Shown here: piece after piece, positions 35,383-55,616 of the stretch
Numbering within the stretch: the stretch's first letter is position 1
Layout: every line of letters begins with the position of its first letter
Source: a virus
DNA length: 64,000 bases
IMG/VR virus record: IMGVR_UViG_3300044620_001243
Direction: 5' to 3' (one strand)
Notes under the pieces: generated by a model
The model's database searches: none
The model's input: the letters and a program-made list of their open reading frames with translations, nothing else
Told to the model about the DNA's origin: nothing
Made by a program: the position numbers and the translations under genes

Positions 35383-35783
35383 AAATTATGAAAAATCTAA
35401 TATTATTAAGGGGTTTACCTGGTTCGGGAAAATCGACAGTCGCAAAAATGTTGGTCAACAAAGACTACTGTCATAAAGAAGCAGATATGTTTTTCGTCGA
35501 CAGAGAAGGCAACTATAAGTTCGAGCCGTCGAAAATCAAAGACGCACACGCTTGGTGCCAAGAAGAAGTTGAGTTCTTGTTGAGACTCGAACACACGCCG
35601 GTGGTTGTTTCCAACACATTCACACAAGAATGGGAGATGGAAGCTTATTATAAGTTGGCCAAAGATTACGGTTACACAGTTTTCTCATTGATTGTTGAAA
35701 ACCGACACGGCGGAAGGAATATTCACGGTGTTCCTGATGATAAGTTAGAAATTATGAAAAACAGATTTGAAATAAAATTATGA
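35379..35783 (+). CDS. P-loop polynucleotide-kinase-like kinase (PNK/N4BP2 clade)
   Basis: LLRGLPGSGKSTVAK Walker A, EADMFF, VVSNTFTQEWE; about 134 aa stand-alone kinase. Confidence 0.6.
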   Translation: MKIMKNLILLRGLPGSGKSTVAKMLVNKDYCHKEADMFFVDREGNYKFEPSKIKDAHAWCQEEVEFLLRLEHTPVVVSNTFTQEWEMEAYYKLAKDYGYTVFSLIVENRHGGRNIHGVPDDKLEIMKNRFEIKL

Positions 35784-37006: not shown

Positions 37007-38032
37007 ATGAAAAAACTAGAATTAACAAAAGACGAATTGGAAAAACTTTATTATCTCCCCCCAAAGGATGTTGAGAAAGAAACAGAATTCCAAATAACCT
37101 ATCGAATGGGTAGAAACTCATTAGTGTTGGAGTTGATAAAAAAGATAGATGAGGAACTCACACCCTACATTGAATACCACGACAACGGAAATGTGTGGAT
37201 TAAAGGACAAGAGAACTCCGTAGGACAACGAGAAGGCATTTGGGAGTATTTCTGGGTGAACGGAAACATCGAAAGGAGAATCCCTTTTAAAGAGGGTAAG
37301 GTGGACGGTATTCAGGAGGTTTTCTATCCAAACGGGAACATCGATTTTAGAACCCCATTCAAAGATGGTAATATGGATGGAATTCAGGAGTGGTTTGATG
37401 AACAAGGAAACATCACCAAAACCACTCTATGGAAAAATGGTGAAGTAATTGAAGAAACTGAACCCGAACTCACACCATACGTTGAATACCACGACAACGG
37501 AAATGTAGCGGTAAAAGGACAAAAGAACTCCGTAGGACAGGAAGAAGGTATTTGGGAGTTCTTCTATTCAAACGGAAATATCCAATATTCAAACGGAAAT
37601 ATCCAATGTAGAACCCCATACAAAGAGGGTAAGGCGGATGGTATTCAGGAGGTTTTCTATGAAAGCGGAAACATCCATTGGAGAACCCCATACAAAGAGG
37701 GTAAGAGGGATGGAATTGAGGAGTGGTTCTATGAAAACGGAAACATCGAATGGAGAACCCCATACAAGGAGGGTAAGATGGATGGAATTGAGGAGCGGTT
37801 TGATAAACAAGGAAACATCAAATGGAGAATCCCATACAAAGAGGGAAAACTGATTGAAGAAACTAAACCCAAACCACAACCTGACCCACAACTAATTGAT
37901 TTTATGGCAATGAGATACAGACATGACTTTGGGTTTTTGGATGAAAAACACAAAGAATCCATCAGAATAACAATGAAACAACTTTGGGAAGAAGTTGTTG
38001 GTCTTGGATTTTATAAACCAAAATCAAAATAA
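37007..38032 (+). CDS. MORN/YwqK-type repeat protein
   Basis: 341 aa; about 9 tandem roughly 23-aa repeats (G.W..F..NGNI..R.P.K.GK.DGI.E.F). Confidence 0.7.
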   Translation: MKKLELTKDELEKLYYLPPKDVEKETEFQITYRMGRNSLVLELIKKIDEELTPYIEYHDNGNVWIKGQENSVGQREGIWEYFWVNGNIERRIPFKEGKVDGIQEVFYPNGNIDFRTPFKDGNMDGIQEWFDEQGNITKTTLWKNGEVIEETEPELTPYVEYHDNGNVAVKGQKNSVGQEEGIWEFFYSNGNIQYSNGNIQCRTPYKEGKADGIQEVFYESGNIHWRTPYKEGKRDGIEEWFYENGNIEWRTPYKEGKMDGIEERFDKQGNIKWRIPYKEGKLIEETKPKPQPDPQLIDFMAMRYRHDFGFLDEKHKESIRITMKQLWEEVVGLGFYKPKSK

Positions 38033-38670: not shown

Positions 38671-39525
38671 ATGAATCAGAAAAACTTAATTATTCTCGGA
38701 GTTGCCGCCTTTATCTTAGGCCTCTTCTCTATGACCAGCTGTGAAATAATCGACGCTGGTCACGTTGGTGTTAAAGTCAATCTTTACGGCGACGGAAAAG
38801 GTATTGACGATGTGACCGAAGTCAATGGCAGGGTATTCTACAACCCCTTTACCACAAAAATTGTTGAATTTCCAACTTTTATCCAGCACAAAGAATACAA
38901 ACACAACGGAGAAGACAATCCCGATGAATCTTTTGTGGTCAACTCAAAAGATGGGTCAGAGTTTCATGTATCTCCATTATTGAACTATTCAGTCAAGAGG
39001 GAAAGAGTTCCTTATATTTTCGGTAAGTACCGAGTTACTCTGGATGAAATCGAATCTGGTTTCTTAAAAACAGCAGTCTATGATGCCTTTCGTGTTGTCG
39101 CAAATTCATACACCGCAGATGAATTGATTTCAAATCGTGAACAGTTCGAAGTAAAGGTTCGTAAGGTTTTGGTAACCCATCTCTTACCCGAAGGATTCAT
39201 ACTAGCACAATTTACATCTAATCTTGTCTATCCCGAAACATTCAAGAAAGCCATTGAAGCTAAGAACAATGCGGTTCAATCAGCACTCACCGCAGAGAAC
39301 AGAGTAAAACAAGCGGAGGCCGAGGCAAAAATCAAAATTGCACAAGCCGAAGGTAATGCTCAAGCAATGCTGACTTCGGCCAAGGCAGAAGCGGAGTCAA
39401 ACAGGATGAAACAACAAACCATTACACCTATGCTTCTACAACTTGAGTACATCAAGAAATGGAACGGAGTTGAACCCACAACACAATTGTGTTCAGGGTC
39501 AAATATGATGTATAACATAAAATAG
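38671..39525 (+). CDS. SPFH/Band-7 (prohibitin-homology) domain protein
   Basis: N-terminal anchor, SPFH core, and A/E/K-rich coiled region RVKQAEAEAKIKIAQAEGNAQA typical of the family. Confidence 0.7.
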   Translation: MNQKNLIILGVAAFILGLFSMTSCEIIDAGHVGVKVNLYGDGKGIDDVTEVNGRVFYNPFTTKIVEFPTFIQHKEYKHNGEDNPDESFVVNSKDGSEFHVSPLLNYSVKRERVPYIFGKYRVTLDEIESGFLKTAVYDAFRVVANSYTADELISNREQFEVKVRKVLVTHLLPEGFILAQFTSNLVYPETFKKAIEAKNNAVQSALTAENRVKQAEAEAKIKIAQAEGNAQAMLTSAKAEAESNRMKQQTITPMLLQLEYIKKWNGVEPTTQLCSGSNMMYNIK

Positions 39526-39550: not shown

Positions 39551-39576
39551 GGGAAGAATTGTCTTCCCTTTTTTTT
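39551..39576 (+). terminator. rho-independent terminator
   Basis: GGGAAGA-ATTG-TCTTCCC followed by TTTTTTTT, 25 nt after the SPFH stop. Confidence 0.65.
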
Positions 39577-39601
39577 GTTTGGTATTTTAAAATTTATTTC
39601 G

Positions 39602-39609
39602 TATATTTA
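39602..39609 (+). promoter_or_regulatory. -7 box TATATTTA
   Basis: Directly after terminator 39551-39576 and 4 nt before ATG 39614. Confidence 0.4.
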
Positions 39610-39613
39610 CACT

Positions 39614-40333
39614 ATGAAAACCGTATTCATCGGCGATATTCACGGACGTTCCATTTGGAAAGAAATTGTAGAACAGGAAAAACCTGATAGGGTTATTTTT
39701 GTCGGAGACTATTTCGACTCACTTGATATTCCAGGTATTGACCAAATTCATAATTTTAAAGAAATCATTCACCACAAAAAAACAAGTGGAATTGAGGTTG
39801 TACTGTTGGTAGGTAATCACGATTATCATTATATGGATATGGGTGAAACTTACAGTGGATTTCAACCTGCTCTAAAATTTGATATTGGGCAGTTACTCAA
39901 AGAAAATATGGAACATTTACAAATGGCACATTCATTTGATAATTTCCTTTGCACCCACGCTGGTGTATCTTCGGTGTTTATGAATGATAATTTTAGAGAT
40001 AGTTGGGATTGCGATAATTTAGTTGAAAAACTGAATGAAACATTTAAATATTCTCCATTCATTTTTAAGTTCAATGGTTTTAATCCATATGGGGATAATG
40101 AAACACAATCACCTATTTGGATTAGGTTGAATTCATTGAGAAGTTCAAATAACAAACGAGGTAAAGATGGAATTAAAAAGCAATTTATTCAAGTGTTTGG
40201 ACACACCCAAGTTAAAGAAATTGATTTGGTTGGAATGGCGAAATTTTTAGGTGGTAGATATATTATGATTGATGCTTTACCATCCCGTCAATACCTAATT
40301 TACAATGGAGAAATTAAAGTAGGAAAAGTGTAA
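39614..40333 (+). CDS. Ser/Thr phosphatase-type metallophosphoesterase
   Basis: VFIGDIHGR, VGDYFD, VGNHD, THAG, GHT motifs; start moved to ATG 39614 downstream of promoter. Confidence 0.7.
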   Translation: MKTVFIGDIHGRSIWKEIVEQEKPDRVIFVGDYFDSLDIPGIDQIHNFKEIIHHKKTSGIEVVLLVGNHDYHYMDMGETYSGFQPALKFDIGQLLKENMEHLQMAHSFDNFLCTHAGVSSVFMNDNFRDSWDCDNLVEKLNETFKYSPFIFKFNGFNPYGDNETQSPIWIRLNSLRSSNNKRGKDGIKKQFIQVFGHTQVKEIDLVGMAKFLGGRYIMIDALPSRQYLIYNGEIKVGKV

Positions 40334-41586: not shown

Positions 41587-41725
41587 AGTCAGATGGCGAA
41601 ATGTAGCCGCTATTTGGGTAAAACAGTTTAACACGAGACGCGAACCTCACACAAAGCCTGATAATAACCAAATGAAAGTGCGAAGTACAGTAACACTTAT
41701 ACGGGTTCGACTCCCGTTCTGACTG
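41587..41725 (+). ncRNA. tRNA-Leu-like shell RNA 1 (divergent copy)
   Basis: AGTCAGA-TG-GCGAAATGTAGCCGC ... ACGGG-TTCGACT-CCCGT-TCTGACT-G; 90-nt insert with ATTTGG/CCAAAT stem around 51 nt, plus AAGTG/CACTT arm. Confidence 0.55.
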
Positions 41726-44439: not shown

Positions 44440-44604
44440 ATGCAACCAAAAGAATCAAAAACAAATACCCATTTTCAATTAAGTTTGATAAAATCTCTTT
44501 TAAGGATATTAGGATGTATTTATCTATTCTTTGGGTGTACAAGTATGTTTGTAATTATTTTCATATTTGCAGAAATTCTTGGAATTTTAGAAGAAATTTT
44601 GTAG
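44440..44604 (+). CDS. small membrane protein
   Basis: 54 aa from ATG 44440; C-terminal TM helices. Confidence 0.35.
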   Translation: MQPKESKTNTHFQLSLIKSLLRILGCIYLFFGCTSMFVIIFIFAEILGILEEIL

Positions 44605-44628
44605 TTTGAATTTTTTTTCGTATATTTG
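44598..44628 (+). promoter_or_regulatory. Bacteroidota-type promoter at the head of the RNA array
   Basis: TTTG, 19 nt, TATATTTG; tRNA-Met starts at 44654. Confidence 0.55.
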
Positions 44629-44653
44629 TATTCTGAATATGAAAATAAACAAT

Positions 44654-44727
44654 AGCGGGGTGGTGGCAGATGGTAGCCCGCCAGGCTCATAACCTGGAGG
44701 TCGTAGGTTCGAGTCCTACCCCCGCAA
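44654..44727 (+). tRNA. tRNA-Met (CAU), initiator-like
   Basis: Hand-folded cloverleaf colinear with E. coli tRNA-fMet (AGCGGGG..CCAGG-CTCATAA-CCTGG-AGGTC-GTAGG-TTCGAGT-CCTAC-CCCCGCA-A); A1/A72 mismatch; one bulged U in the D stem; starts about 25 nt after the -7 box at 44621-44628. Confidence 0.75.
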
Positions 44728-44791
44728 CCGTATAGTTTTTGTTCTTTGACATCTTGGGAATTAAAAGTAAAAGTCGAGAGACTTAAAAATT

Positions 44792-44901
44792 AGTCAGGTG
44801 GCGGAATTGGTAGACGCAAGTGAGAATAGTAATTGCGCTGATGTAGCGGCAGATGCAGTAAGTTATTATTCATACAGGTTCGAGTCCTGTCCTGACTACC
44901 A
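44792..44901 (+). ncRNA. tRNA-Leu-like shell RNA 2
   Basis: Consensus ends (AGTCAGGTGGCGGAATTGGTAGACGC ... ACAGGTTCGAGTCCTGTCCTGACTACCA); 56-nt insert forms a rod GAATAGTAA/TTATTATTC + TTGC/GCAG + GCTG/CGGC; no 5-7-5 anticodon arm. Confidence 0.6.
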
Positions 44902-45008
44902 AAGAAACAAGTAAAACGCAAACGCACAGTCCCTTGATGCATCAGGTGAGGCGCACACTGTATACTGGATGACCTCTGTTTCTTTTTTAATCAGTCAGGT
45001 GGCGGAAT
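44871..45008 (+). repeat. 138-bp exact duplication, copy 1 (T arm + acceptor + spacer + next 5' half)
   Basis: Identical by eye to 45339-45476. Confidence 0.8.
44902..44992 (+). ncRNA. structured 91-nt spacer RNA candidate (copy 1 of 2)
   Basis: AAAGAAACA (from 44901, sharing the terminal A of the preceding CCA)/TGTTTCTTT 9-bp closing stem, internal ACAGT/ACTGT and GAGG/CCTC pairings, palindrome TGATGCATCA; identical copy at 45370-45460. Confidence 0.3.
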
Positions 45009-45101
45009 TGGATAGACGCATTGAGGAATCTAAACTTGGTAGCATTTGTTAGATTTAATAGTAATCCTCCTTCCTTACAGGTTCGACTCCTGTCCTGACT
45101 A
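44993..45101 (+). ncRNA. tRNA-Leu-like shell RNA 3
   Basis: Consensus ends; 57-nt insert with GAGGA/TCCTC and ATCTAA/TTAGAT stems. Confidence 0.6.
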
Positions 45102-45267
45102 CGACAGTTAGCAGATAATACTTGGTAGTTCTTGTAACGTCTGACTATGCGTGAGGTGGTTTTATAACTTTCCACCAGCTGGTCCAAAACTAAAAGTTAA
45201 TACAGGTTTAATAACGGGGTGAAGGAAAGTCTAACTAACAAGTACTTCACTACCTACTGTAAAAATT

Positions 45268-45369
45268 AGTCAGGTGACGAAATTGGTAGACGTGCCACGA
45301 ATAAAACTAAGTGGTGGAGAAACAGCTTTCAGGCACTCCATACAGGTTCGAGTCCTGTCCTGACTACCA
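45268..45369 (+). ncRNA. tRNA-Leu-like shell RNA 4
   Basis: Ends AGTCAGGTGACGAAATTGGTAGACGT ... CCTGACTACCA; 48-nt insert with CCAC/GTGG and GGAG/CTCC hairpins. Confidence 0.6.
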
Positions 45370-45476
45370 AAGAAACAAGTAAAACGCAAACGCACAGTCC
45401 CTTGATGCATCAGGTGAGGCGCACACTGTATACTGGATGACCTCTGTTTCTTTTTTAATCAGTCAGGTGGCGGAAT
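45339..45476 (+). repeat. 138-bp exact duplication, copy 2
   Basis: Identical by eye to 44871-45008; offset 468 bp. Confidence 0.8.
45370..45460 (+). ncRNA. structured 91-nt spacer RNA candidate (copy 2 of 2)
   Basis: Identical to 44902-44992. Confidence 0.3.
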
Positions 45477-45558
45477 GGTAGACGCACTGGACAGGCGATG
45501 CATTTAAAACAGAAATAAGCCCAGTCGGTACTTACAGGTTCGAATCCTGTCCTGACTA
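45461..45558 (+). ncRNA. tRNA-Leu-like shell RNA 5
   Basis: Consensus ends; 48-nt insert with ACTGG/CCAGT + GGC/GCC around a 22-nt loop. Confidence 0.6.
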
Positions 45559-45926
45559 CAAATCTTAGGAGTAATTAACCTAAGACTGAGAGGTTCGAAA
45601 CTCTCGATTGGCTATGGTGTAATGGGCACAGAGAAACGGAGTACGAAAGGGGTTACGGGAATTTTCCCGCAAACATCAGAAACGGGACTCAGGATTATGG
45701 TTCGAATCCATATTAGTCAACAAGCCGTCTTTTTTTCTTGTCCGCCGTGGACGTGGATTGTTGAGACGTAAAAGTAACAATCGATTGATTAGAGAACGGT
45801 AGGATACAGGTTCACTAGACGAAGGTAGAAGTTTTTTTTTGATAGATGGGTTTGAGTTCTTTATAACAACAAACCAACTATAATTCAGTAGGGACAAATG
45901 GGAGCGGCTTACTCCAGTCCCGAAAT

Positions 45927-46085
45927 AGTCAGGTGGCGGAATTGGTAGACGCTATGAAATCATGTTTTAAGATTGAACGGGTAGGCAGACGTAACATATA
46001 GGTAAAAGAGTGTTATCGCCGAATACACTTATAAGGGTCCTATGAAAAAACTTCAATCATACAGGTTCAAGTCCTGTCCTGACTA
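45927..46085 (+). ncRNA. tRNA-Leu-like shell RNA 6 (largest insert)
   Basis: Consensus ends (T loop TTCAAGT); 108-nt insert with GATTGAA/TTCAATC closing stem and nested helices. Confidence 0.55.
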
Positions 46086-46328
46086 CACGTTCCGAAACAG
46101 ACAACGGATAGTTCCACTATGAACGATGAGAAACAGGGTGATGTCCTGTATTAGTTATCGCCTCCCGAATGCGGTCGGGATAGGTTGACCACCTAAACAT
46201 CAGCAATGTGAACGGTCTATTTCTAACTCACCTACGTTTGTAAGACAACATAGAAGTGACGAGACGGGAAACTCGTCGTGAGGACATCCAAGACACCTGT
46301 AAGTTGGATAAATTAGGGTGTTATTTTT

Positions 46329-46451
46329 AGTCAGGTGTGGGTAAAAATGCGCTAACTGGAAACCCACTGAAAGCGAAAGCAAAGTCGAGGTCTAAATGCG
46401 CACTATGGCCGAGGTAATGGCGAGATACAGGTTCAAGTCCTGTCCTGACTA
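46329..46451 (+). ncRNA. tRNA-Leu-like shell RNA 7 (D arm replaced)
   Basis: AGTCAGG-TG, then GTGGGT/ACCCAC hairpin instead of the D arm, GC-GAAA-GC hairpin, consensus T arm and CCTGACT-A. Confidence 0.5.
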
Positions 46452-46596
46452 CAAAGACAATGGTTTTCCCCATTCAACGGATGTCGACAATCCAGAATGG
46501 AATCGGAATTCAGCACCCTCAGCCGAGGCGCCTCGTAAAACTACGATTAAGCTGTTAAGATTGGAGCGAGACGGGTACTCCATCATTGTCTTATTT

Positions 46597-46668
46597 GGTC
46601 GGTTCATCTAGAGGTTAGGATACAAGATTTTCATTCTTGTCACATGGGTTCGATTCCCATACCGACTA
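46597..46668 (+). tRNA. tRNA-Glu (UUC)
   Basis: GGTCGGT/ACCGACT acceptor, D arm ATCT-AGAGGTTA-GGAT, anticodon arm CAAGA-TTTTCAT-TCTTG, T arm ATGGG-TTCGATT-CCCAT, A73. Confidence 0.85.
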
Positions 46669-46843
46669 CCTTGGAGGTATAGGGGTAAACCCTTGAGGCG
46701 AAGTACAAGCCATAGTCACTGAACTTAAACTGACCTCCAACCAAATTAGAAGTGTCGCAATACGCGTTTCAATCTAATTGATAGACGTATCAATGAAGAT
46801 GTTCGAGGGTGAAAATCCCAAGCTTCTAATCCTCCATTCTTAG

Positions 46844-46938
46844 TGTTATGTGGTTAAAACACGTTAACTCTTACATCGCCTGATTAGCGCTAATCCGAAT
46901 GTAAGACGAGTAAGTTGGTTCGAATCCAACAGAATGGA
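46844..46938 (+). ncRNA. tRNA-like RNA of a second lineage with rod-like anticodon arm
   Basis: Acceptor CCATTCT/AGAATGG (7 bp), D arm GTGT-TATGTGGTTAAA-ACAC, T arm GTTGG-TTCGAAT-CCAAC, A73; 50-nt rod TTACAT/ATGTAA + palindrome GATTAGCGCTAATC. Confidence 0.55.
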
Positions 46939-47216
46939 CAATGAGTAAGAGATACTCAGAGTCTTTGGTCTAAGACTTAAACAATAGACTCGCAGAATGT
47001 CTACGGCGTGAGTGGGACATCATGGGAACAAAGAAGAGTCACACACCTTCTCCCAGTAGTGTTGACAGGTTTTTATGTGGTAAGACACTAATGAAAAAGA
47101 CTCGTTCTATGGGGTACTTATCTGGAGTATCAAACAAGTGTGAGTGATATGGTTCTCGAACAGACAGAGAAACCCGTTAAAATCTACCCGTCTGGAATCT
47201 CAGGATGGGGAAACAT

Positions 47217-47319
47217 AGTCAGGTGGCGGAGTGGGCTAACGCTAACTTGGAAGAGTCTGAGGAGTGGTAACCAAGTACCTATACTCTGATGACCGCAGGT
47301 TCGAATCCTGTCCTGACTA
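47217..47319 (+). ncRNA. tRNA-Leu-like shell RNA 8
   Basis: AGTCAGG-TG-GCGGAGTGGGCTAACGC ... GCAGG-TTCGAAT-CCTGT-CCTGACT-A; 52-nt insert with ACTTGG/CCAAGT stem; loop AGAGT complementary to downstream ACTCT. Confidence 0.6.
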
Positions 47320-47337
47320 CAAAAATAAATTAAAATT

Positions 47338-47598
47338 ATGTTTATAGAAAGATTTTTTAACCCCTATGTGTCATCTCACGAAAGGGTATTATATGAGAAT
47401 AAAGAAGCAATTGAACATTGTTTGAAATATCATACATGGATTAGACATTATTCATTTGAAGGTGATGAATATATCAAAAATGTTAATGGTAAATTAGTTT
47501 GGAATGATGGTAGTAAAGTTGATAAAAGAAAATTACCTAAAAAAGGAAAAGGATGGGGCAGATATTCAAGTGAACTTTATAATTTGTGTTCTTTTTAA
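47338..47598 (+). CDS. hypothetical protein (cassette between tRNA-like elements)
   Basis: 86 aa ORF starting 18 nt after element 47217-47319 and ending 7 nt before element 47606. Confidence 0.5.
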   Translation: MFIERFFNPYVSSHERVLYENKEAIEHCLKYHTWIRHYSFEGDEYIKNVNGKLVWNDGSKVDKRKLPKKGKGWGRYSSELYNLCSF

Positions 47599-47605
47599 AT
47601 TAAAT

Positions 47606-47751
47606 AGTCAGGTGGCGGAATTGGTTAGACGCTGTAAAAGTAAGATATGGGAATTGTGCACTCGGTAAACCTACGCACAAGGCTTAGATAGTTGTGCAAC
47701 AGCGGAAAGTCTTACAAAACTATCTTACAGGTTCGAATCCTGTCCTGACTG
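47606..47751 (+). ncRNA. tRNA-Leu-like shell RNA 9
   Basis: Consensus ends (G73); 94-nt insert with AAGATA/TATCTT and TTGTGC/GCACAA stems. Confidence 0.55.
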
Positions 47752-47764
47752 CAAAATTAAAGAT

Positions 47765-47908
47765 ATGTTTAGAACATTAAATTATATTTGGAAATTGTTT
47801 TGGAAAAGACCTAGTAGAAGAGTATTTTTTATATTTTTTAGAATGCTAAAAACGGAAATTAAGTGTTTAATGTTGACTGGATACTCAACAGATGAATTAC
47901 TAAATTAG
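47765..47908 (+). CDS. hypothetical small protein (cassette between tRNA-like elements)
   Basis: 47-codon ORF found by eye; its TAG stop overlaps the first 2 nt of element 47907. Confidence 0.3.
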   Translation: MFRTLNYIWKLFWKRPSRRVFFIFFRMLKTEIKCLMLTGYSTDELLN

Positions 47909-48033
47909 TCAGGTGGCGGAATTGGTAGACGCACGATTTATTGTTTAACGATGTGGCTCAATGTCCTAATGGATGAGAGAAAATAAACAGAGAAATATAC
48001 CACATACAGGTTCGAATCCTGTCCTGACTACCA
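47907..48033 (+). ncRNA. tRNA-Leu-like shell RNA 10
   Basis: Consensus ends with encoded CCA; 73-nt insert with crossing complementarities TTTATT/AATAAA and ATGTGG/CCACAT. Confidence 0.6.
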
Positions 48034-48085
48034 AGTTAACCCACTAAGACTAGAAACGGGTGACACCTCGGAAAGACGAGGACAT

Positions 48086-48170
48086 AGTCAGGTGGCGGAA
48101 TGGATAGACGCGGCCCTATCAGGGGTAGAGGCGAAAGAAACTCATACAGGTTCGAATCCTGTCCTGACTA
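48086..48170 (+). ncRNA. tRNA-Leu-like shell RNA 11 (tRNA-sized, non-canonical anticodon loop)
   Basis: 85 nt; best arm CCCTA-TCAGGGG-TAGAG has a C/A mismatch and C at position 33; looks like a damaged Leu(CAG) loop. Confidence 0.5.
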
Positions 48171-48278
48171 CACAGTGTTGGCTTCAAGGACCTATTAGGG
48201 AAGTACACTTAAATAAAACAAGAACGGGGAAAACACCGAATCTGCAGATAACGGCGAAGTACCAACGAAAGGTGAAAC

Positions 48279-48352
48279 GACCTCATAGCTTAATTGGTAA
48301 AGCACCTGGCTTTTAACCAGGGGAGTCCAGAGTTCGAGTCTCGGTGGGGTCA
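48279..48352 (+). tRNA. tRNA-Lys (UUU)
   Basis: GACCTCA/TGGGGTC acceptor, D arm GCTT-AATTGGTA-AAGC, anticodon arm CCTGG-CTTTTAA-CCAGG, T loop TTCGAGT, A73. Confidence 0.8.
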
Positions 48353-48517
48353 CAAAGGTTGATTGGGGAATGATGGTGACAAAGACTTGAGAGTTTATGC
48401 CGGTCGTTACCATCGGAGTTGGGAGGTATAAACCTAAGCAATGCCAATCGTAAAAGGAGTTGTCCACTCGACCATCTTCTCCTTTCCTTTTTTTTAAAAA
48501 AATTCTTAAAGACACAT

Positions 48518-49001: not shown

Positions 49002-50435
49002 ATGTGTGAATTTTTACCAAAAAGAATGGGTTATAAGTTAGAATTACTTAAAAGTGCGTTAAGTATTGATGGGGTTGAATCAATAGATAATGTGATAAAT
49101 TGGATTTTACTTCAAAATAAATCAACACATATTTCTGTAAATCGTGTTGATTTAATGTCACTTAAAAATTGGTTTTTTTCAAATGACATTCAAAACATAT
49201 ATCATAAAACTGGTAAATTTTTTTCTATTGATGGAATAACAGTTAAAACTAATTGGGGAACTATTAATGAATGGGACCAACCCATTATTAACCAACCTGA
49301 AATAGGGTTTTTAGGGTTTATCACACAAGAAATAAATGGGGTTTTACATTTCTTATTACAAGCTAAGATTGAACCAGGAAACGTAAATTATGTGCAATTA
49401 TCCCCAACTTTACAAGCCACACGTAGTAATTACACTCAAATTCATAGAGGAAATAAACCTTTTTTTCTTGAATATTTTTTAAATGTTAAATCAGAAAACA
49501 TTCTTTTTGACCAGTTACAATCTGAACAAGGTGCTCGTTTTTTGCGAAAACGAAACAGAAACATTATTATTAAAGTTGACGAACCAATAAAGCCACCTTC
49601 TAATTTTATGTGGTTAACTTTAGGTCAACTCAAACTATTAATGAAGATGTCTAATATCGTAAATATGGATACAAGAACAGTAATTTCTGGTATTTTATTT
49701 GACGGTCTTTCTCAATTTAATTATGAACAAATCATGAATGAAAAAGGAATAGTTCCTTCTGATTTGGGTGTTTCATTTTTTAAATCTGCAATTCTTAATG
49801 AAGGGTCTCTTCATAGTATTGAAGAGATAATTACATTTTTAACTAAACACAAAAGTTTTTTTGAAATTTTTATTGAACGAATACCACTTACTCATTTACG
49901 TAAATGGGAAGTCAAATCAGACGAGATTGTACGTCCTGATAATAAATATTTTAAAATTATTGGTGTAAATGTTGAAATTGATAATCGAGAAGTATCTAAT
50001 TGGGACCAACCGATGTTAATGCCATTGCAAGAAGGTATTTGTGCCATGATTGTTAAAAACATAAATGGTGTAATGCATTTTTTAATGTTAGCAAAATTAG
50101 AGTGTGGTAATCATGATATTATTGAATTTGCACCAACTATTCAACACACATCAACTGGCAATGATTTGTCATCTAATTGTCCACCATTTTTAAATTATGT
50201 GCTTGAATCCAATGAAAAACAAATAATTTACGACACTTATCAATCAGAAGAAGGTGGTAGATTTTATCGAGAACAAAATAGGTATCTAATTGTCCTCGCA
50301 GATGAAGATTTTAAAAACGAAGTGCCTGAAAATTATATTTGGATGACATTGTATCAAATTCAAGTTTTTTTAAAATTTAACAATTATATTAATATACAGG
50401 CACGTAGTCTTATCGCGGCTATTTCTTATTTATGA
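49002..50435 (+). CDS. NDP-hexose 2,3-dehydratase
   Basis: 477 aa with two internal repeats of the hexose-dehydratase domain (WDQP...G.L......G...FL.QAK.EPGN; second copy WDQPML...HFLMLAKLECGN; GGRF). Confidence 0.7.
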   Translation: MCEFLPKRMGYKLELLKSALSIDGVESIDNVINWILLQNKSTHISVNRVDLMSLKNWFFSNDIQNIYHKTGKFFSIDGITVKTNWGTINEWDQPIINQPEIGFLGFITQEINGVLHFLLQAKIEPGNVNYVQLSPTLQATRSNYTQIHRGNKPFFLEYFLNVKSENILFDQLQSEQGARFLRKRNRNIIIKVDEPIKPPSNFMWLTLGQLKLLMKMSNIVNMDTRTVISGILFDGLSQFNYEQIMNEKGIVPSDLGVSFFKSAILNEGSLHSIEEIITFLTKHKSFFEIFIERIPLTHLRKWEVKSDEIVRPDNKYFKIIGVNVEIDNREVSNWDQPMLMPLQEGICAMIVKNINGVMHFLMLAKLECGNHDIIEFAPTIQHTSTGNDLSSNCPPFLNYVLESNEKQIIYDTYQSEEGGRFYREQNRYLIVLADEDFKNEVPENYIWMTLYQIQVFLKFNNYINIQARSLIAAISYL

Positions 50436-51418
50436 AAAAACGTTTTGTTGTTGGTATCATGGGTTGTGCAAGTATTGCTGAGAGAATGATGATTCCGGCA
50501 ATACAAAATAGTTTGTATTTTGATTTAAAATTAATAGCGAGTAGGTCTCAATCAAAAGCAAAACAATTTGCTCAAAAGTTTAATATTGAGGCGGTAGTTG
50601 GTTATGAGAATTTATTAAACAATCCAAATATAGAAGTCATATATATGCCTCTCCCAACTGGTCTTCATTTAGAATGGGCAATAAAAACATTAAATGCGGG
50701 AAAACATTTACTTATAGAAAAATCATTAGCAAATAATTACGAAGAAACTAAAACGATAGTATCTTTAGCAAAAAAGAAAGGACTTCTTGTTATGGAAAAT
50801 TTTATGTTTCAGTATCACAGTCAGATGGGTGAATTAAGTAAATTATTAGATTCACATGTAATAGGTGATATTCGTTCTGTACATATTAGTTTTGGATTCC
50901 CACCATTCAAAGATTCCTCTAATATTCGTTACTCTCATGAGCTTGGGGGTGGGTCGTTACTTGATGCGGGGTCATATACATTGAAAATCGCTCAATTATT
51001 ACCTGTAGGTAAATTAAAAATTCAAGGAGCCAGTTTAGTTCAATCAAGAACCCATGGTGTTGATATTTCAGGAGAATGTTTTCTAACTACTAATCAAGGT
51101 ATAGGAATACACACTTCTTTTGGATTTCAACACTATTATCAGTGTAAATTAGAAATATGGGGTAGTCAAGGTAAAATCATCGCTCATCGTATTTTTACCG
51201 CTGGTCCGAATGTGATTCCTAAAATTGAAGTTGAAACAGAAAAAAAAACCATTCAAATATCTACTTCCGCAGATAATCACTTTATAAATCTATTGTCTCA
51301 TTTTGGAAATTGCTTACAACAAATGGATTTTATTGAGTCTGAATATCAATTACTTTTACAACAATCGTATTTATTGGAGGAATTAAGGTTAAAAGCCGAA
51401 ATTTTTTATCAAAATTGA
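50432..51418 (+). CDS. Gfo/Idh/MocA-family oxidoreductase (likely NDP-3-keto-deoxysugar reductase)
   Basis: N-terminal Rossmann fold GIMGCASIAERMMIPA, EKS motif (LIEKSLA); ATGA-coupled to the 2,3-dehydratase. Confidence 0.65.
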   Translation: MKKRFVVGIMGCASIAERMMIPAIQNSLYFDLKLIASRSQSKAKQFAQKFNIEAVVGYENLLNNPNIEVIYMPLPTGLHLEWAIKTLNAGKHLLIEKSLANNYEETKTIVSLAKKKGLLVMENFMFQYHSQMGELSKLLDSHVIGDIRSVHISFGFPPFKDSSNIRYSHELGGGSLLDAGSYTLKIAQLLPVGKLKIQGASLVQSRTHGVDISGECFLTTNQGIGIHTSFGFQHYYQCKLEIWGSQGKIIAHRIFTAGPNVIPKIEVETEKKTIQISTSADNHFINLLSHFGNCLQQMDFIESEYQLLLQQSYLLEELRLKAEIFYQN

Positions 51419-53524: not shown

Positions 53525-54256
53525 ATGGATAAAGATAAATTAAAAAATATCATTACCAGAATTGGTCAAATAAATCCAAAATATGAATTGGAAAATATTC
53601 TGCCTCAATCGCCAAAATTAATTAAATTAATGCCTAAATTAATTCAACTCATGGGTGACCCATTAGAAGATGCTCAATTGGCTGCAGTTAAAAAAGATGG
53701 TTTAACAATCGAATATATCGTTAAAGGTGGAATCACCCCATCAGAAGATGTTCAATTGGCTGCAGTTAACGAAAATGGTTATGCAATCCAATATATCATT
53801 AATGGTGGAATCGTCCCATCAGAAGGTGTTCAATTGGCTGCAGTTAACAAAAAGGGTTATGCAATCTCAAATATCATTAAAGGTGGAATCGTCCCATCAG
53901 AAGATGTTCAATTGGCCGCAGTTAACGAAGAGGGTTATGCAATAGGATATATCATTGATGGTGGAATCGTCCCATCAGAAGGTGTTCAATTGGCCGCAGT
54001 TAATAATAATGGTTATGCAATCCAACATATCATTAATGGTGGAATCGTTCCATCAGAAGGTGTTCAATTGGCCGCAGTTAACAAAAAGGGTTTATCAATC
54101 GAATATATCATTGATGCCGGAATCATTCCATCAGAAGATGTTCAATTTGGAGCAGTTAATTATAATGGTTTATCAATCCAATATATCATTGATGCTGGAA
54201 TCACCCCATCAGAACGTGTAAAAGAACTTGCTCGTTCCAAGGGTGTTCAAATATAA
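53525..54256 (+). CDS. DUF4116-like repeat protein, paralog 1 of 3
   Basis: Seven roughly 30-aa repeats GGI.PSEDVQLAAVN.NGYAIQYII; shared N- and C-termini with the next two genes. Confidence 0.6.
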   Translation: MDKDKLKNIITRIGQINPKYELENILPQSPKLIKLMPKLIQLMGDPLEDAQLAAVKKDGLTIEYIVKGGITPSEDVQLAAVNENGYAIQYIINGGIVPSEGVQLAAVNKKGYAISNIIKGGIVPSEDVQLAAVNEEGYAIGYIIDGGIVPSEGVQLAAVNNNGYAIQHIINGGIVPSEGVQLAAVNKKGLSIEYIIDAGIIPSEDVQFGAVNYNGLSIQYIIDAGITPSERVKELARSKGVQI

Positions 54257-54261
54257 ATAAC

Positions 54262-54897
54262 ATGGATAAAGATAAATTAAAAAATATCATTACCAGAATT
54301 GGTCAAATAAATCCAAAATATGAATTGGAAAATATTCTGCCCCAATCACCAAAATTAATTCAATTCATGGATAATCCATCAGAAGATGTTCAATTGGCCG
54401 CAGTTAAAAAAGATGGTTTAACAATCTATTATATCATTGAAGCCGGAATCGTCCCATCTGAAGATGTTCAATTGGCTGCAGTTAATAATAATGGTTCATC
54501 AATCTATCAAATCATATATGATGCTGGAATCACCCCATCAGAAGATGTTCAATTGGTTGCAGTTAAAAAAGTGGGCGACTTAATCTATGATATCATTAAA
54601 GTCGGAATAACCCCATCAGAAGATGTTCAATTGGCTGCGGTTAATAATAATGGTTCATCAATAGGATATATCATTAACGGTGGAATCACCCCATCAGAAG
54701 ATGTTCAATTGGCCGCTGCTAATCAAAATGGTAGGGTAATCCAATATATCATTAAAGCTGGAATCACCCCATCAGAAGATGTTCAATTGGCCGCAGTTAA
54801 TAATAATGGTTATGCAATCCAACATATCATTAACGCCCGAATCACCCCATCAGAACGTGTAAAAGAACTTGCTCGTTCCAAGGGTGTTAATATATAA
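54262..54897 (+). CDS. DUF4116-like repeat protein, paralog 2 of 3
   Basis: Same architecture; N-terminus MDKDKLKNIITRIGQINPKYELENI identical. Confidence 0.6.
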   Translation: MDKDKLKNIITRIGQINPKYELENILPQSPKLIQFMDNPSEDVQLAAVKKDGLTIYYIIEAGIVPSEDVQLAAVNNNGSSIYQIIYDAGITPSEDVQLVAVKKVGDLIYDIIKVGITPSEDVQLAAVNNNGSSIGYIINGGITPSEDVQLAAANQNGRVIQYIIKAGITPSEDVQLAAVNNNGYAIQHIINARITPSERVKELARSKGVNI

Positions 54898-54902
54898 GTT
54901 AT

Positions 54903-55616
54903 ATGGATAAAGATAAATTAAAAAATATCATTACCAGAATTGGTCAAATAAATCCAAAATATGAATTGGAAAATATTGTGCAGCAAGCGCCACAATTAAT
55001 TCAATTCATGGATAATCCATCTGAAGAAATTCAATTGGCCGCGGTTGAAAAAGATGGTAAATATATAAAAAATATTATTGAAAGTGGAATCAAACCATCA
55101 GAAGATGTTCAATGGACAGCTGTTAATCAAGGTGGTCAGTCACTTTATTTTATCCTTGAAGCCGGAATCGTCCCATCTGAAGATGTTCAGTTGGCAGCGG
55201 TTAGAAGTAGAGGTTCGGCAATCCAATTTATCATTGAAGCTGGAATCATTCCATCAGAAGATGTTCAATGGTTTGCGGTTAACGAAAATGGTTATGTAAT
55301 CCAAGATATCATTGATGCCGGAATCACCCCATCAGAACGTGTTCAATTGGCCACAGTTAATTATAATGGTTTGTTAATCAAATATATCATTGATGTCGGA
55401 ATCACCCCATCAGAACGTGTTCAATTGGCTGCTGTTAATCAAAATGGTTTGTCAATCAAAGATATCATTGAAGCCGGAATCGTCCCATCTGAAGATGTTC
55501 AGTTGACTGCAGTTAGAAGTAGAGGTTCGGCAATCCAATTTATCATTTATAATGGTGGAATCAAACCATCAGAACGTGTAAAAGAACTTGCTCGTTCCAA
55601 GGGTATTAATATATAA
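54903..55616 (+). CDS. DUF4116-like repeat protein, paralog 3 of 3
   Basis: Same architecture; C-terminus PSERVKELARSKG.NI shared. Confidence 0.6.
   Translation: MDKDKLKNIITRIGQINPKYELENIVQQAPQLIQFMDNPSEEIQLAAVEKDGKYIKNIIESGIKPSEDVQWTAVNQGGQSLYFILEAGIVPSEDVQLAAVRSRGSAIQFIIEAGIIPSEDVQWFAVNENGYVIQDIIDAGITPSERVQLATVNYNGLLIKYIIDVGITPSERVQLAAVNQNGLSIKDIIEAGIVPSEDVQLTAVRSRGSAIQFIIYNGGIKPSERVKELARSKGINI

Follow-up and report, generated by a model that had tools for sequence, protein, structure and literature searches.

Why does this phage carry the tRNA genes that it does? The window analyzed here is a stretch of 64,000 nt from the IMG/VR virus record IMGVR_UViG_3300044620_001243, and it derives from a phage with a large, AT-rich genome that infects Bacteroidota, as indicated by its promoter motif, nearest cultured phages, and MAG bins. 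Genes for tRNA-Met(CAU), tRNA-Glu(UUC), and tRNA-Lys(UUU) lie in a 3.7-kb RNA island (44.6-48.4 kb). A sequence-only reading had stressed that Lys-UUU and Glu-UUC are classic anticodon-nuclease targets, with codon-usage compensation as the alternative. The three tRNAs are in themselves ordinary; the more unusual content is the surrounding repeat family, to which that reading had not linked them.

The three tRNAs and the codons they read

ARAGORN and Rfam both confirmed the three genes as canonical tRNAs, all on the + strand and with Rfam scores far above chance (Table 1; gathering score of RF00005, 29 bits). The least canonical is tRNA-Met, whose D stem is irregular. Its 5' strand AGCGGGG and 3' strand CCCCGCA leave an A1.A72 mismatch, and the 3' strand with the following A73 and CC is identical to that of E. 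coli tRNA-fMet. By these sequence features it is an initiator-type tRNA, and its closest DNA matches are jumbo-phage tRNA-Met genes.

Codon usage was assessed in the 92 ORFs of the window. AAA (77.6/1000) and GAA (68.3/1000) rank first and second among all codons, making up 86% of Lys and 80% of Glu codons, respectively, and TTA is the top Leu codon. Since the tRNAs match the two commonest codons, codon supply alone accounts for the set, which supports the codon-usage alternative from the phage side. Across 138 loci, the canonical tRNAs adjoining elements of the repeat family are mostly Met-CAU (28) and U34 readers of NNA codons (Leu-UAA 15, Gln-UUG 13, Arg-UCU 13, Glu-UUC 12, Thr-UGU 12, Ser-UGA 11), and this U34-dominated set is the pattern of AT-rich phages. 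Lys-UUU is comparatively rare, at 5 of the 231 canonical tRNAs in these loci and, in a separate count, in 14 of about 250 related loci. Such rarity despite AAA being the top codon is not predicted by pure codon supply.

A close relative, L009 (89-100% identical), carries Leu-UAA, Gln-UUG, Glu-UUC, Ser-UGA, and Ile-UAU. It thus keeps tRNA-Glu(UUC), and after an identical 107-nt spacer it has tRNA-Ser(UGA) and tRNA-Ile(UAU) where the window has tRNA-Lys(UUU). The most economical role for the three tRNAs would be to provide more initiator and more decoders of the two commonest phage codons, whatever restricts their supply during infection. On this view they are accessory cassettes that can be exchanged within a hyperplastic RNA island, with no fixed selected trio.

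A tRNA-shaped element repeated through the island

Along with the tRNAs, the island holds 10 of the window's 16 copies of an element built on a fixed acceptor stem, a tRNA-Leu-type D arm (A14, A15, G18G19), and a T arm, with a hypervariable structured core in place of the anticodon arm. Each half-frame has 15-16 matches in the window, compared to 0-0.13 expected. Eight copies score at or above the Rfam gathering threshold for tRNA, and in them 6 to 56 nt replace 9 to 18 model positions of the anticodon region. The element is apparently an undescribed tRNA-shaped RNA that punctuates phage genes.

Table 1. Coordinates of tRNAs, tRNA-like elements, and other features in the window
Feature	Coordinates	Strand	Details
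RNA ligase, T4 Rnl1 family	32068-33363	+	PF09511 5e-17; phrog_562 4e-71; PDB 2C5U/5TT6 T4 Rnl1 2e-17
cREC cyclic-phosphate-processing domain protein	33360-33773	+	PF20274 1.8e-21
Metallophosphoesterase, end-healing candidate	34726-35382	+	PF00149; phrog_547 6e-40
P-loop kinase, polynucleotide-kinase-like	35379-35783	+	AAA_33 3.8e-13; phrog_505 polynucleotide kinase 2.6e-10
Variant-frame tRNA-like element	41587-41725	+	acceptor AGUCAGA/UCUGACU, T stem ACGGG/CCCGU, both changes compensatory
Bacteroidota-type promoter-like motif	44598-44628	+	~25 nt upstream of tRNA-Met
tRNA-Met(CAU), initiator-type	44654-44729	+	ARAGORN; RF00005 38.9 bits, E=3.8e-5
E1, tRNA-Leu-like, 107 nt	44792-44898	+	
E2, 109 nt	44993-45101	+	
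E3, 99 nt	45268-45366	+	
E4, 98 nt	45461-45558	+	Rfam tRNA 43.9 bits; 30-nt insertion in anticodon loop
E5, 159 nt	45927-46085	+	different single element at same place in L009
E6, 123 nt, divergent D arm	46329-46451	+	
Conserved structured non-coding RNA	46452-46596	+	between E6 and tRNA-Glu
tRNA-Glu(UUC), canonical	46597-46670	+	ARAGORN; RF00005 58.7 bits, E=1.4e-10
Other expanded tRNA-like RNA	46834-46938	+	acceptor CCAUUCU/AGAAUGG differs; folding z-score -2.8
E7, 103 nt	47217-47319	+	Rfam 39.1 bits; L009 identity 103/103
E8, 146 nt	47606-47751	+	within 432-nt cassette absent from L009
E9, 124 nt	47907-48030	+	Rfam 37.5 bits; within 179-nt cassette absent from L009
E10, 85 nt	48086-48170	+	Rfam 39.1 bits; L009 identity 83/85
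tRNA-Lys(UUU), canonical	48279-48353	+	ARAGORN; RF00005 62.1 bits, E=1.6e-11
HAD phosphatase, "Swiss Army Knife" (SAK-HAD) RNA-repair type	56831-57448	+	PF18143 4e-19
E11, 90 nt	61412-61501	+	Rfam 33.5 bits; ARAGORN Leu-TAA
E12, 83 nt	61686-61768	+	ARAGORN "Gly-ACC"
E13, 123 nt	61974-62096	+	
E14, 107 nt	62329-62435	+	Rfam 40.3 bits
E15, 78 nt	62951-63028	+	Rfam 46.7 bits; core common to L131

A further tRNA, a "probable Leu-UAA" at 61412, had been proposed from the sequence. This is not a canonical tRNA: Rfam gives it no more than 33.5 bits, the D stem is shifted out of register, and what would be the "anticodon arm" forms a helix of 8-9 bp that contains a C.A mismatch and closes on a 6-nt loop. 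The ARAGORN call of Leu-TAA at 61412-61501 was rejected, as it is one of the 16 repeat copies (E11); the calls "Pro-AGG" at 48086 and "Gly-ACC" at 61686 were also rejected, being copies E10 and E12 misread as tRNAs. The non-coding RNA at 46452-46596 has homologs in six phage contigs, with compensatory changes in 10/22 predicted pairs; it had no Rfam match.

The element is widespread. An exact match to its 24-mer is present in at least 120 contigs of IMG/VR and in 18 MAG contigs, and the exact AGUCAGG frame is kept across contigs of 26-53% G+C. Sister lineages are present in other phages, one of them the cultured Bacteroides phage BS-TP2, and have among them at least 20 further acceptor stems, each of them base-paired, although these pairing statistics are partly circular because the detector itself demanded paired stems.

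Processing signals, placement, and cassette exchange

The ends of the elements resemble those of tRNA precursors. U at -1 is present in 174/216 copies, A73 in 199/209, and C74 in 211/216, and the trailer A73-C-A/U-A-A is also found on bona fide tRNAs of element-bearing phages (A73-CAAA on the tRNA-Lys of the window). Internally, U8 (201/209), U48 (179/209), and the T loop UUCGAAU (176/209) are kept. Elements are co-oriented with neighboring genes in 187 of 216 cases. In the window, nine copies follow a stop codon by 5-7 nt, precede an ATG by 12-19 nt, or do both. For example, 7 nt separate the element at 41587-41725 from the preceding stop codon and 12 nt from the following ATG, E7 ends 18 nt before the ORF at 47338-47598, and E8 is spaced by 7 nt from the stop codon in front of it and by 13 nt from the ORF at 47765-47908. 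Cassette indels between the window and L009 have their breakpoints inside element frames, and the flanks are 100% identical.

The motif TTTG-N-TAtaTTTG, which we take to be a Bacteroidota-type promoter consensus, occurs 13 times on the + strand of the window and four times on the - strand, compared to 1.35 in shuffles. The copy just upstream of tRNA-Met likely marks the start of the RNA-island transcript, and there is no second full motif within 44650-48400. We infer that the three tRNAs are co-transcribed with the rest of the island as one unit. The island consists of repeats of a tRNA-Leu-like element whose frame (acceptor, D arm, T arm, and A73) is retained, and a different structured core takes the place of the anticodon and variable region in each copy. 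Most likely acting as tRNA-precursor mimics, the elements would be sites where RNase P and 3' tRNA-processing enzymes cut the polycistronic transcript, so that each small gene downstream would be freed with a short A-rich leader, and the repeated frame would provide homology for the gain, loss, and exchange of cassettes of elements with genes or tRNAs. The element is most likely a portable module for processing by RNase P/Z and for recombination. Overall, we lean toward an explanation in which real phage tRNAs serve codon and initiator supply among such modules. RNase P/Z recognition does leave the exact conservation of the AGUCAGG frame across that G+C range unexplained.

Possible counter-defense and other roles

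It is possible, if unlikely, that host anticodon nucleases draw down the pools of tRNA-Lys(UUU), tRNA-Glu(UUC), or the initiator during infection and that phage copies, resistant or extra, sustain translation beside a repair pathway. The Rnl1, polynucleotide-kinase-like kinase, phosphoesterases, cREC, and SAK-HAD proteins encoded in the window make up a T4-type heal-and-seal tRNA repair set, and a Tad3 Thoeris inhibitor and a DNA methylase add to the anti-defense gene load. Since the repair module and the Thoeris inhibitor are evidence of investment in counter-defense, a nuclease-related tRNA role deserves consideration. There are precedents: PrrC cuts tRNA-Lys(UUU), and coliphages with tRNA-Lys also carry Rnl1 (PMC10264068), the same combination as in the window; a bacterial Schlafen cleaves tRNA-Lys(UUU) 194-fold and tRNA-Met(CAU) 145-fold (PMC13056530); phage tRNA-Thr rescues cells from P2 OLD (PMC12445682); and tRNAs and RNA repair were proposed to be paired in jumbo phages (PMC7824862). 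The Lys-UUU cassette also varies among near-identical phages, as a host-specific counter-measure would.

However, the tRNA-Lys anticodon loop is the standard CUUUUAA, the general bacterial consensus, with no visible nuclease-escape substitution. From codon usage by itself one would expect the same two elongator tRNAs, and related phages carry the whole U34 set, not known targets in particular. The nuclease reading is not demonstrated, although the encoded repair set and Thoeris inhibitor speak in its favor. Known nuclease targets now include Lys, Met, Thr, Tyr, Arg, and other tRNAs, so almost any tRNA set would contain some classic ones. The literature examined yielded no bacterial nuclease specific for tRNA-Glu(UUC), and zymocin, cited earlier for tRNA-Glu, is a yeast toxin.

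We consider it rather improbable that the elements are functional RNAs themselves, with the canonical tRNAs merely co-processed. Thanks to the frame, the core would then be matured by RNase P/Z, acquire a CCA end, and resist nucleases, as reportedly happens with engineered tRNA scaffolds. Such a core might serve as an aptamer, sponge, or regulator, and perhaps as a decoy for host tRNA-binding defense or translation factors. In orthologous copies, core hairpins are kept via compensatory substitutions, which hints that the core itself has a function. E11 recurs at 97-100% identity in four phage contexts, some of them more G+C-rich; the copy in L105 (4390-4479) is 100% identical in an unrelated context that is more G+C-rich, judging by flanking sequence. 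The elements may also be leucylated: the leucine identity set (A73, U8, U48, the Leu-type D arm, and the T loop) is kept in the frame, and what varies is precisely the part that LeuRS does not need. Anticodon-arm deletion costs A. aeolicus LeuRS only 2.5-fold in tRNA affinity (PMC2377443). Yet the strict Leu-type D arm is found in only 91/209 copies, and the 216 copies form 186 clusters by core sequence with no motif common to all. Core antisense complementarity to the window is not above shuffled controls, folding z-scores are modest (-0.3 to -2.3), and no partner protein gene family is common to the element loci (best family, 16/138). Moreover, a free-standing RNA gene would not need the tight placement by stop and start codons.

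Finally, the elements could be selfish or structural DNA repeats, decayed tRNA-Leu duplicates whose ends promote homologous recombination without RNA-level function, with the three tRNAs as passengers. The gain, loss, and swap of cassettes at frame breakpoints, the differing tRNA content of near-identical phages, a truncated frame relic at 61222-61238, and a single tRNA-Ile(UAU) body that bears two different acceptor stems (L009 versus L066) are consistent with such shuffling, which would be akin to that of integron attC sites or of the PeSLs in hyperplastic regions of T4-type phages (PMC2839356, PMC4122927). We nevertheless find this doubtful, because neutral pseudogenes would lose U(-1), A73, C74, the T loop, and the D-loop GG, here kept at 80-95%, would not maintain full pairing of entirely different acceptor stems across lineages, and would not be expected to be co-oriented with genes; these are RNA-level features of tRNA precursors.

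A tRNA-Leu-like repeat family around three tRNAs

All six tRNA-type genes that ARAGORN called in the window lie on the + strand, and Rfam returned, beyond tRNA-Met, tRNA-Glu and tRNA-Lys, seven further tRNA matches at or above the gathering score (33.5-46.7 bits). These seven share a common frame; five have 19-56 nt in place of the anticodon region, and two (48086 and 61412) have a near-normal anticodon span with a long variable region instead. The 5' half of the frame reads AGUCAGG-UG-GCGGAAU(U)GGUAGACGC and the 3' half (A/U)U-ACAGGUUCGAAUCCUGU-CCUGACU-A. A pattern search of the window found the 3' half in 15 copies (0.00 expected) and the 5' half in 16 matches (0.13 expected); the 5'-half match at 50819, which lies inside an ORF and has three mismatches, was rejected as an element. 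Sixteen copies have paired ends: one at 41587, ten at 44792-48170 interleaved with the three tRNAs (E1-E10) and five at 61412-63028 (E11-E15). Each copy is 78-159 nt long and has a core between the D and T arms found in no other window copy, and the D arm is that of bacterial tRNA-Leu. The elements retain an acceptor/T-arm minihelix and an elbow and have no decoding arm, as in tRNA-like processing elements. Rfam holds no specific family for the repeat, with matches only to RF00005, which is also the only known RNA family detected in the region at E values up to 1, and a literature search in which subscription journals were thinly covered found no description of it. The RNA system at these coordinates is of interest and apparently undescribed, with a mechanism that we infer; the three tRNAs and the repair genes are of known kinds, and the repeat family around the tRNAs matters more than the tRNAs themselves.

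The remaining three ARAGORN calls are copies of this element. One of them, E11, had been listed in the sequence-only reading as a probable Leu-UAA at 61412; it is no clean tRNA, with 33.5 bits in Rfam, a D stem out of register and a long mismatched helix. A canonical tRNA-Leu(UAA) would show a class II cloverleaf, a regular D stem, a 5-bp anticodon stem, a CUUAAAA-like loop and a long variable arm. We rejected 61412-61501 as such a gene, as its anticodon helix is 8-9 bp long and contains a C.A mismatch and its loop is UUAAGU/CUUAAGU; in related phages, genuine tRNA-Leu(UAA) genes look different, with ordinary arms and other acceptor stems. In the related loci L001-L138, ARAGORN labels 44 family elements with arbitrary anticodons; Tyr-ATA, Ser-ACT, "Pyl-CTA" and anticodons of two or four bases are among them. 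The family is therefore likely to produce false tRNA and suppressor calls when viral metagenomes are surveyed, and false anticodons such as Pro-AGG, Gly-ACC, Leu-TAA, Tyr-ATA and "Pyl-CTA" would corrupt tRNA and recoding surveys.

The RNA island from tRNA-Met to tRNA-Lys (44654-48353) has 41.9% G+C, against 32.0% for the window, and also holds two small ORFs and further RNAs (see table). The structured RNA upstream of tRNA-Glu has homologs in L009, a near-identical relative of this phage, and in L041, L057, L249, L010 and L069; it has a 9-bp closing stem and the invariant motifs UUGUCGACAA, CACCC and GUUAAGAUUGG, and no Rfam match was found for it. Three spacers (45559-45926, 46939-47085 and 48171-48278, +) are 76-92% conserved in several unrelated contigs (L045, L036, L015, L052 and L128) and are probably further non-coding RNAs, some with T-loop-like GGUUCGAANCC hairpins. 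The motif TTTG...TAnnTTTG, which we take to be the Bacteroidota promoter consensus, has 13 occurrences on the + strand of the window and 4 on the - strand, against 1.35 in shuffles. Since it precedes tRNA-Met and the window-wide scan found none inside the island, the island is likely a single transcription unit. A motif scan found no enrichment of sigma-70 promoters or intrinsic terminators in the island; a hairpin with a T-run near 48450-48500 went unreported by the terminator scan, and its loop appears longer than the 3-8 nt limit of the tool.

Features of the window discussed in the text, in order of position
Feature	Coordinates	Strand	Evidence or remarks
Tad3, type I Thoeris inhibitor	8527-9099	+	Pfam 6.4e-38
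RNA ligase, Rnl1 family	32068-33363	+	PF09511; phrog_562, 4e-71; PDB T4 Rnl1 structures, 2e-17
cREC cyclic-phosphate domain protein	33360-33773	+	Domain match
Metallophosphoesterase	34726-35382	+	Metallophos domain match
Polynucleotide-kinase-like P-loop protein, candidate	35379-35783	+	AAA_33; phrog_505; without PDB relative
Bacteroidota-type promoter motif (presumed), TTTG...TAnnTTTG	44598-44628	+	About 25 nt before tRNA-Met
tRNA-Met(CAT)	44654-44729	+	ARAGORN; RF00005 38.9 bits (gathering score 29)
Exact 94-nt direct repeat after E1 and E3	44899-44992 = 45367-45460	+	Ends pair, AAAGAAACA...UGUUUCUUU; folding z-score only -0.2
Conserved structured non-coding RNA directly upstream of tRNA-Glu	46452-46596	+	Compensatory changes in 10 of 22 pairs, six phages
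tRNA-Glu(TTC)	46597-46670	+	ARAGORN; RF00005 58.7 bits (gathering score 29)
Expanded tRNA-like RNA, 105 nt	46834-46938	+	Acceptor stem CCAUUCU/AGAAUGG, T arm; folding z-score -2.8; conserved in L009
Window-only cassette: leader, ORF 47338-47598 and E8	47320-47751		Absent in L009; ends in repeated frame
Window-only cassette: E9 and 55 nt	47907-48085		Absent in L009; ends in repeated frame
"Pro-AGG" (element E10)	48086-48171	+	ARAGORN call
tRNA-Lys(TTT)	48279-48353	+	ARAGORN; RF00005 62.1 bits (gathering score 29)
HD protein	55622-56194		Domain search; grouped with RNA-repair genes
HAD phosphatase, SAK type	56831-57448	+	HAD_SAK_2 match
"Leu-TAA" (element E11)	61412-61502	+	ARAGORN call; Rfam 33.5 bits
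"Gly-ACC" (element E12)	61686-61769	+	ARAGORN call

At least 120 IMG/VR contigs contain the exact 24-mer CAGGTTCGAATCCTGTCCTGACTA, often in several copies, and so do 18 MAG contigs among 185,579 species genomes, where every occurrence is the same hypervariable element. An origin of the repeat in a host tRNA or attP site was rejected, as the 24-mer is absent from ordinary tRNA genes in those genomes. The AGUCAGG frame was not found in 50,697 GenBank phage records; a sister lineage is present among GenBank phages only in the cultured Bacteroides phage BS-TP2 and one fecal contig. Element loci span 26-53% G+C. The 216 copies comprise 209 distinct sequences and 186 clusters by core, and in orthologous cores the hairpins change through compensatory substitutions. 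A scan for sister lineages with a Leu-type D-arm 20-mer as query returned ordinary 79-85 nt tRNA-Leu genes and about 30 expanded elements of 93-221 nt. The latter share A73 and the family's C-A/U-A-A trailer but use at least 20 other acceptor stems, which are fully paired throughout, as the detector required. Across 23 frames, all seven acceptor pairs and three of the five T-stem pairs vary on both sides with pairing kept, counts that show stem diversity and are no independent test of pairing, because the detector required it.

Within the frame, U8 is kept in 201/209 sequences, A73 in 199/209 (95%), U48 in 179/209 and the T loop UUCGAAU in 176/209. The base after A73 is C in 211 of 216 copies (98%), followed by A/U-A-A, and genuine tRNAs of these phages share this trailer. 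Position -1 is U in 174 of the copies (81%, against a 31% background), and U(-1) is the preference of bacterial RNase P. Substrates of leucyl-tRNA synthetase (LeuRS) are recognized by A73 and the core contacts U8-A14, A15-U48, G18-U55 and G19-C56, and deletion of the anticodon arm costs only 2.5-fold in affinity for A. aeolicus LeuRS (PMC2377443). These identity nucleotides are present in most copies, with a strict Leu-type D arm in only 91/209. By this pattern, the frame seems to keep the leucine identity set and to vary the part dispensable for LeuRS, and the elements may possibly be charged.

Gene borders, cassette exchange and predicted processing

Relative to neighboring ORFs, 187 of the 216 copies are co-oriented and seven opposed. 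An ATG-initiated ORF begins 10-30 nt downstream of 74 copies, and a stop codon lies no more than 30 nt upstream of 95; placement at gene borders in the direction of the genes is that of processing elements. In the second cluster of the window (61265-63320), every element lies 5-7 nt after a stop codon and 16-19 nt before an ATG, with an A-rich leader; across the window, nine elements have a stop codon 5-7 nt upstream and/or an ATG 12-19 nt downstream. The arrangement in BS-TP2 is alike: its element (lineage GGUAUCG; PQ571275.1, 19550-19660), unannotated and missed by ARAGORN, follows the gp31 stop by 26 nt and precedes the gp32 ATG by 16 nt. At 61222-61238 (+) of the window, where ORF 61016-61222 ends and the next small gene is about to begin, there is a truncated 3'-frame relic (ATCGAATCCTGACTGCAAA).

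The window and L009 differ in their cassettes, although the flanks of these changes match at 100%. In L009, E7 (103/103 identical) is followed immediately by a 155-nt segment with ORF 47765-47908 (155/155) and then by E10 (83/85), and two stretches are found only in the window, both ending in the repeated frame (see table). At the position of E5 and E6, L009 has a single element with a different core. The ORF at 47338-47598 (+), between E7 and E8, has 75% DNA identity to a stretch of LR756502.1, an uncultured huge phage of 642 kb. L077 also has this ORF and the close relative L009 lacks it, which makes it a mobile accessory gene. E11 (61412-61501) is 97-100% identical to L105 4390-4479, L066 4813-4902 and L074 6895-6984. 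The L105 copy is 100% identical with no similarity in its flanks, and the contigs bearing E11 have unrelated flanking genes and flanks that are, by eye, visibly more G+C-rich than the window. Such identity suggests either horizontal transfer or extreme constraint. One tRNA-Ile(UAU) body is found in both L066 (4958-5030) and L009 (reverse strand, about 4877-4950), once with the family acceptor AGUCAGG/CUUGACU and once with GCUCUCG/CGGGAGU, so that a decoding tRNA seems to have exchanged its acceptor stem. Altogether, the insertions and deletions relative to L009, E11 in foreign context and the tRNA-Ile acceptor swap indicate that the frame behaves as a recombination junction. L039 carries, at 1217-1287, a Lys(UUU)-type body in the family frame.

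Translation initiation in Bacteroidota proceeds without Shine-Dalgarno pairing. The elements may be mimics of tRNA precursors derived from class II tRNA-Leu, whose two variable arms would tolerate expansion. RNase P would cut the element at +1 and the 3' tRNA pathway after A73, and what is excised would mature as tRNAs do, while the ORF downstream would be freed with a short, unstructured, A-rich leader suited to Bacteroidota initiation. An element joined to a leader and gene, or to a tRNA, could then be expressed wherever the unit is inserted in a transcribed region, and the repeated frame would supply the homology for cassette insertion. We propose, tentatively and as a possibility somewhat short of an even chance, that the three tRNAs are the decoding-competent minority of an undescribed phage RNA class of tRNA-Leu-derived "punctuation cassettes," in which a constant frame (predicted to be processable by RNase P/Z and possibly leucylatable) encloses a hypervariable structured core. 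Such cassettes would make small genes and tRNAs portable, promoter-independent units and drive cassette shuffling in Bacteroidota phages, and excised cores or frames could be decoys for host tRNA-directed defense. If tRNA-processing enzymes do cut the elements, Bacteroidota phages would have mitochondrion-like punctuation that doubles as a recombination device for accessory genes; BS-TP2 on B. salyersiae is a cultured system that makes the idea testable.

Introns were rejected as an explanation, since the inserts are too short for group I and many copies form just a tetraloop-capped stem in which an anticodon loop is impossible. A role as antisense guides to phage transcripts gained no support, the longest complementarity of the cores to the window being equal to that of shuffled controls. 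Nor was there support for a partner protein next to the elements, the commonest neighboring family occurring in just 16 of 138 loci, and the RNA-repair genes lie kilobases from the elements, not adjacent.

The proposed punctuation cassettes resemble several known systems and belong to none. Like mitochondrial tRNA punctuation and plant t-elements, they place a non-decoding tRNA shape at the borders of co-transcribed genes. Plant mitochondrial t-elements are reported to have a part in forming 5' and 3' ends (PMC1920247). Unlike t-elements, the window elements are found in a bacterial phage, repeat one frame many times per genome and across phages, and have expanded, hypervariable cores; their cleavage is predicted, and the link to cassette recombination is new. 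Like attC sites and the PeSL cassettes of T4-type phages, they are short intergenic motifs that flank small accessory genes in hyperplastic regions, and PeSLs likewise mark breakpoints of insertion, deletion and replacement between close relatives (PMC2839356, PMC4122927). However, a PeSL is a promoter with a terminator hairpin and has no tRNA mimicry, and the attC sites of integrons are recombined as folded single-stranded DNA by an integrase, an enzyme not implicated here. The engineered tRNA scaffold similarly exchanges the anticodon arm for a foreign structured RNA and keeps the acceptor, D and T arms (PMC3753655). That scaffold, however, is man-made.

Phage T4 encodes the non-decoding stable RNAs "species 1 and 2" (rnaC, rnaD), which are co-transcribed and processed with the tRNAs of one cluster. 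These are two unrelated RNAs, whereas the window has a family of many copies that share one frame, differ in their cores and are scattered among protein genes. The 5' and 3' ends of YrlA, a bacterial Y RNA, lie in a Ro-binding stem, not in an acceptor stem. The window shows no Ro/TROVE gene, and no Y RNA family was matched in Rfam. YrlA is likewise a mimic of the tRNA elbow, tied to RNA-repair operons (PMC4201824, PMC7824862).

Canonical tRNAs, codon supply and anticodon nucleases

A tRNA was counted as canonical if its cloverleaf passed the Rfam gathering threshold, its anticodon stem had 5 bp and its loop had 7 nt with U33. The Met, Glu and Lys genes have all three, with the loops CUCAUAA, UUUUCAU and CUUUUAA, respectively; ARAGORN and Rfam thus bear out the three tRNAs that the sequence-only reading had folded. 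The lower Rfam score of tRNA-Met is due to its irregular D stem. Its acceptor strands, AGCGGGG (5') and CCCCGCA (3'), leave an A1.A72 mismatch and are followed by A73 and CC; at the bottom of the anticodon stem, two of the three initiator G:C pairs are present and 29:41 is A-U. In bacterial initiator tRNAs, positions 1 and 72 are mismatched, residue 73 is A and the anticodon stem has three G:C pairs at its bottom; CCCCGCA with A73 and CC is the 3' acceptor end of E. coli tRNA-fMet. Judged from A1.A72, A73 and the 3' acceptor strand, tRNA-Met(CAU) is probably of the initiator type.

In 92 non-overlapping + strand ORFs (52 kb), AAA is the top codon (77.6 per 1000; 86% of Lys codons), GAA is second (68.3 per 1000; 80% of Glu codons), and TTA leads among the Leu codons. 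The Lys and Glu anticodons thus read the two commonest codons of the phage, and the elongators carried are exactly those that codon supply predicts. This upholds, on the phage side, the codon-usage compensation that the earlier reading had offered as an alternative. Across 138 related loci, Met-CAU leads among the canonical tRNAs beside the repeat, with 28 occurrences, and is followed by U34 tRNAs that read codons ending in A (Leu-UAA, Gln-UUG, Arg-UCU, Glu-UUC, Thr-UGU and Ser-UGA). Lys-UUU was counted there only five times, scarcer than its codon rank predicts. This is the profile of AT-rich phages, not one centered on Lys and Glu. L009 is 89-100% identical over the island, yet its tRNAs are Leu-UAA, Gln-UUG, Glu-UUC, Ser-UGA and Ile-UAU, and after the same 107-nt spacer it carries tRNA-Ser and tRNA-Ile where the window has tRNA-Lys. 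Thus, the Met/Glu/Lys trio is not conserved; that near-identical phages differ in their tRNA set speaks for rapid turnover of tRNA cassettes in dependence on the host, and against a fixed need.

The sequence-only reading had preferred a different explanation, that the phage tRNAs answer host anticodon nucleases, which we regard as rather unlikely. It is favored by tRNA repair genes, the Tad3 Thoeris inhibitor and a DNA methylase encoded in the same window, and it has precedents: PrrC cuts tRNA-Lys(UUU), and coliphages with that tRNA also carry Rnl1 (PMC10264068); a bacterial Schlafen cuts tRNA-Lys(UUU) and tRNA-Met(CAU) most strongly (PMC13056530); and a phage tRNA-Thr rescues cells from P2 OLD (PMC12445682). 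Nuclease-evading phage tRNAs of the type described by van den Berg et al. (2023) differ from the host isoacceptor at the anticodon-loop or stem positions that govern cleavage, but the Lys anticodon loop here is the common CUUUUAA, with no escape substitution visible. No tRNA nuclease described for Bacteroidota was found in the literature searched. As a discriminating trait, the presence of classic nuclease targets in the set does poorly, because so many isoacceptors are attacked by one nuclease or another. The original observation is correct but ordinary, and its nuclease interpretation unproven. Codon and initiator supply are sufficient for the set, and the two readings are not mutually exclusive. 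By itself, the trio is a further, instructive instance of the old puzzle of phage-borne tRNAs: it matches the top codons, lies near a tRNA repair kit that looks full by its domain matches, and varies between near-identical phages.

RNA repair, anti-defense genes and host

The window contains an Rnl1-family ligase as in T4-type heal-and-seal tRNA repair, and three proteins, encoded separately, correspond to the kinase, esterase and ligase parts of phrog_8238, a single PHROG family in which these are fused. Domain families for a candidate 5'-OH kinase and a cyclic/3'-phosphate esterase are also present, with substrate specificities unreadable from sequence. In jumbo phages, such a heal-and-seal repertoire has been described as a counter to attacks on tRNA (Iyer et al., PMC7824862), and by its domain matches the gene set here is that repertoire. 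The set resembles T4 Pnkp/Rnl1 repair of tRNA-Lys against PrrC in combining the ligase, a PNK-like kinase and phosphoesterases with tRNA-Lys(UUU) and an initiator-type tRNA; these two tRNAs also recall replacement tRNAs (T5 tRNA-Lys against PARIS, phage tRNA-Thr against P2 OLD). The combination of repair genes and tRNAs is discussed in PMC10264068, PMC7824862 and PMC12445682. In place of T4 Pnkp, the window has a kinase and a phosphoesterase that are distinct proteins, as is the ligase, and they are accompanied by cREC and SAK-HAD; no nuclease, trigger or resistant substitution was identified. Tad3 and the DNA methylase, as annotated, add to the anti-defense load.

Three MORN-repeat proteins (33973-34446, 37007-38032 and 57468-58595, +) lie among the RNA-repair genes, and a Band 7/SPFH protein (38671-39525) adjoins a second metallophosphoesterase (39575-40333). 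Three tandem paralogous ORFs at 53525-55616 (+) have DUF4116 and DRTGG matches; a match to the tRNA-splicing endonuclease subunit Sen15 in ORF 54262-54897 (28.7 bits, no stretch passing alone) is probably spurious.

The host is most likely a Bacteroidota species. For the UvrD-type helicase, the best cultured-phage matches are the Bacteroides phages DAC16-23 and SJC03 and a Chryseobacterium phage, with Flavobacterium the commonest host genus among all records that matched; repeat-bearing MAG contigs were binned mostly to Chitinophagia, Sediminibacterium, Flavobacterium, Saprospirales and Bacteroidia. Nearly all window genes are on the + strand. Among them are sugar-modification genes at 49002-51418 and 28489-29289, encoding an NDP-hexose 2,3-dehydratase (8e-145), a GFO/IDH/MocA oxidoreductase and a family 2 glycosyltransferase, which may act in DNA or surface glycan modification.
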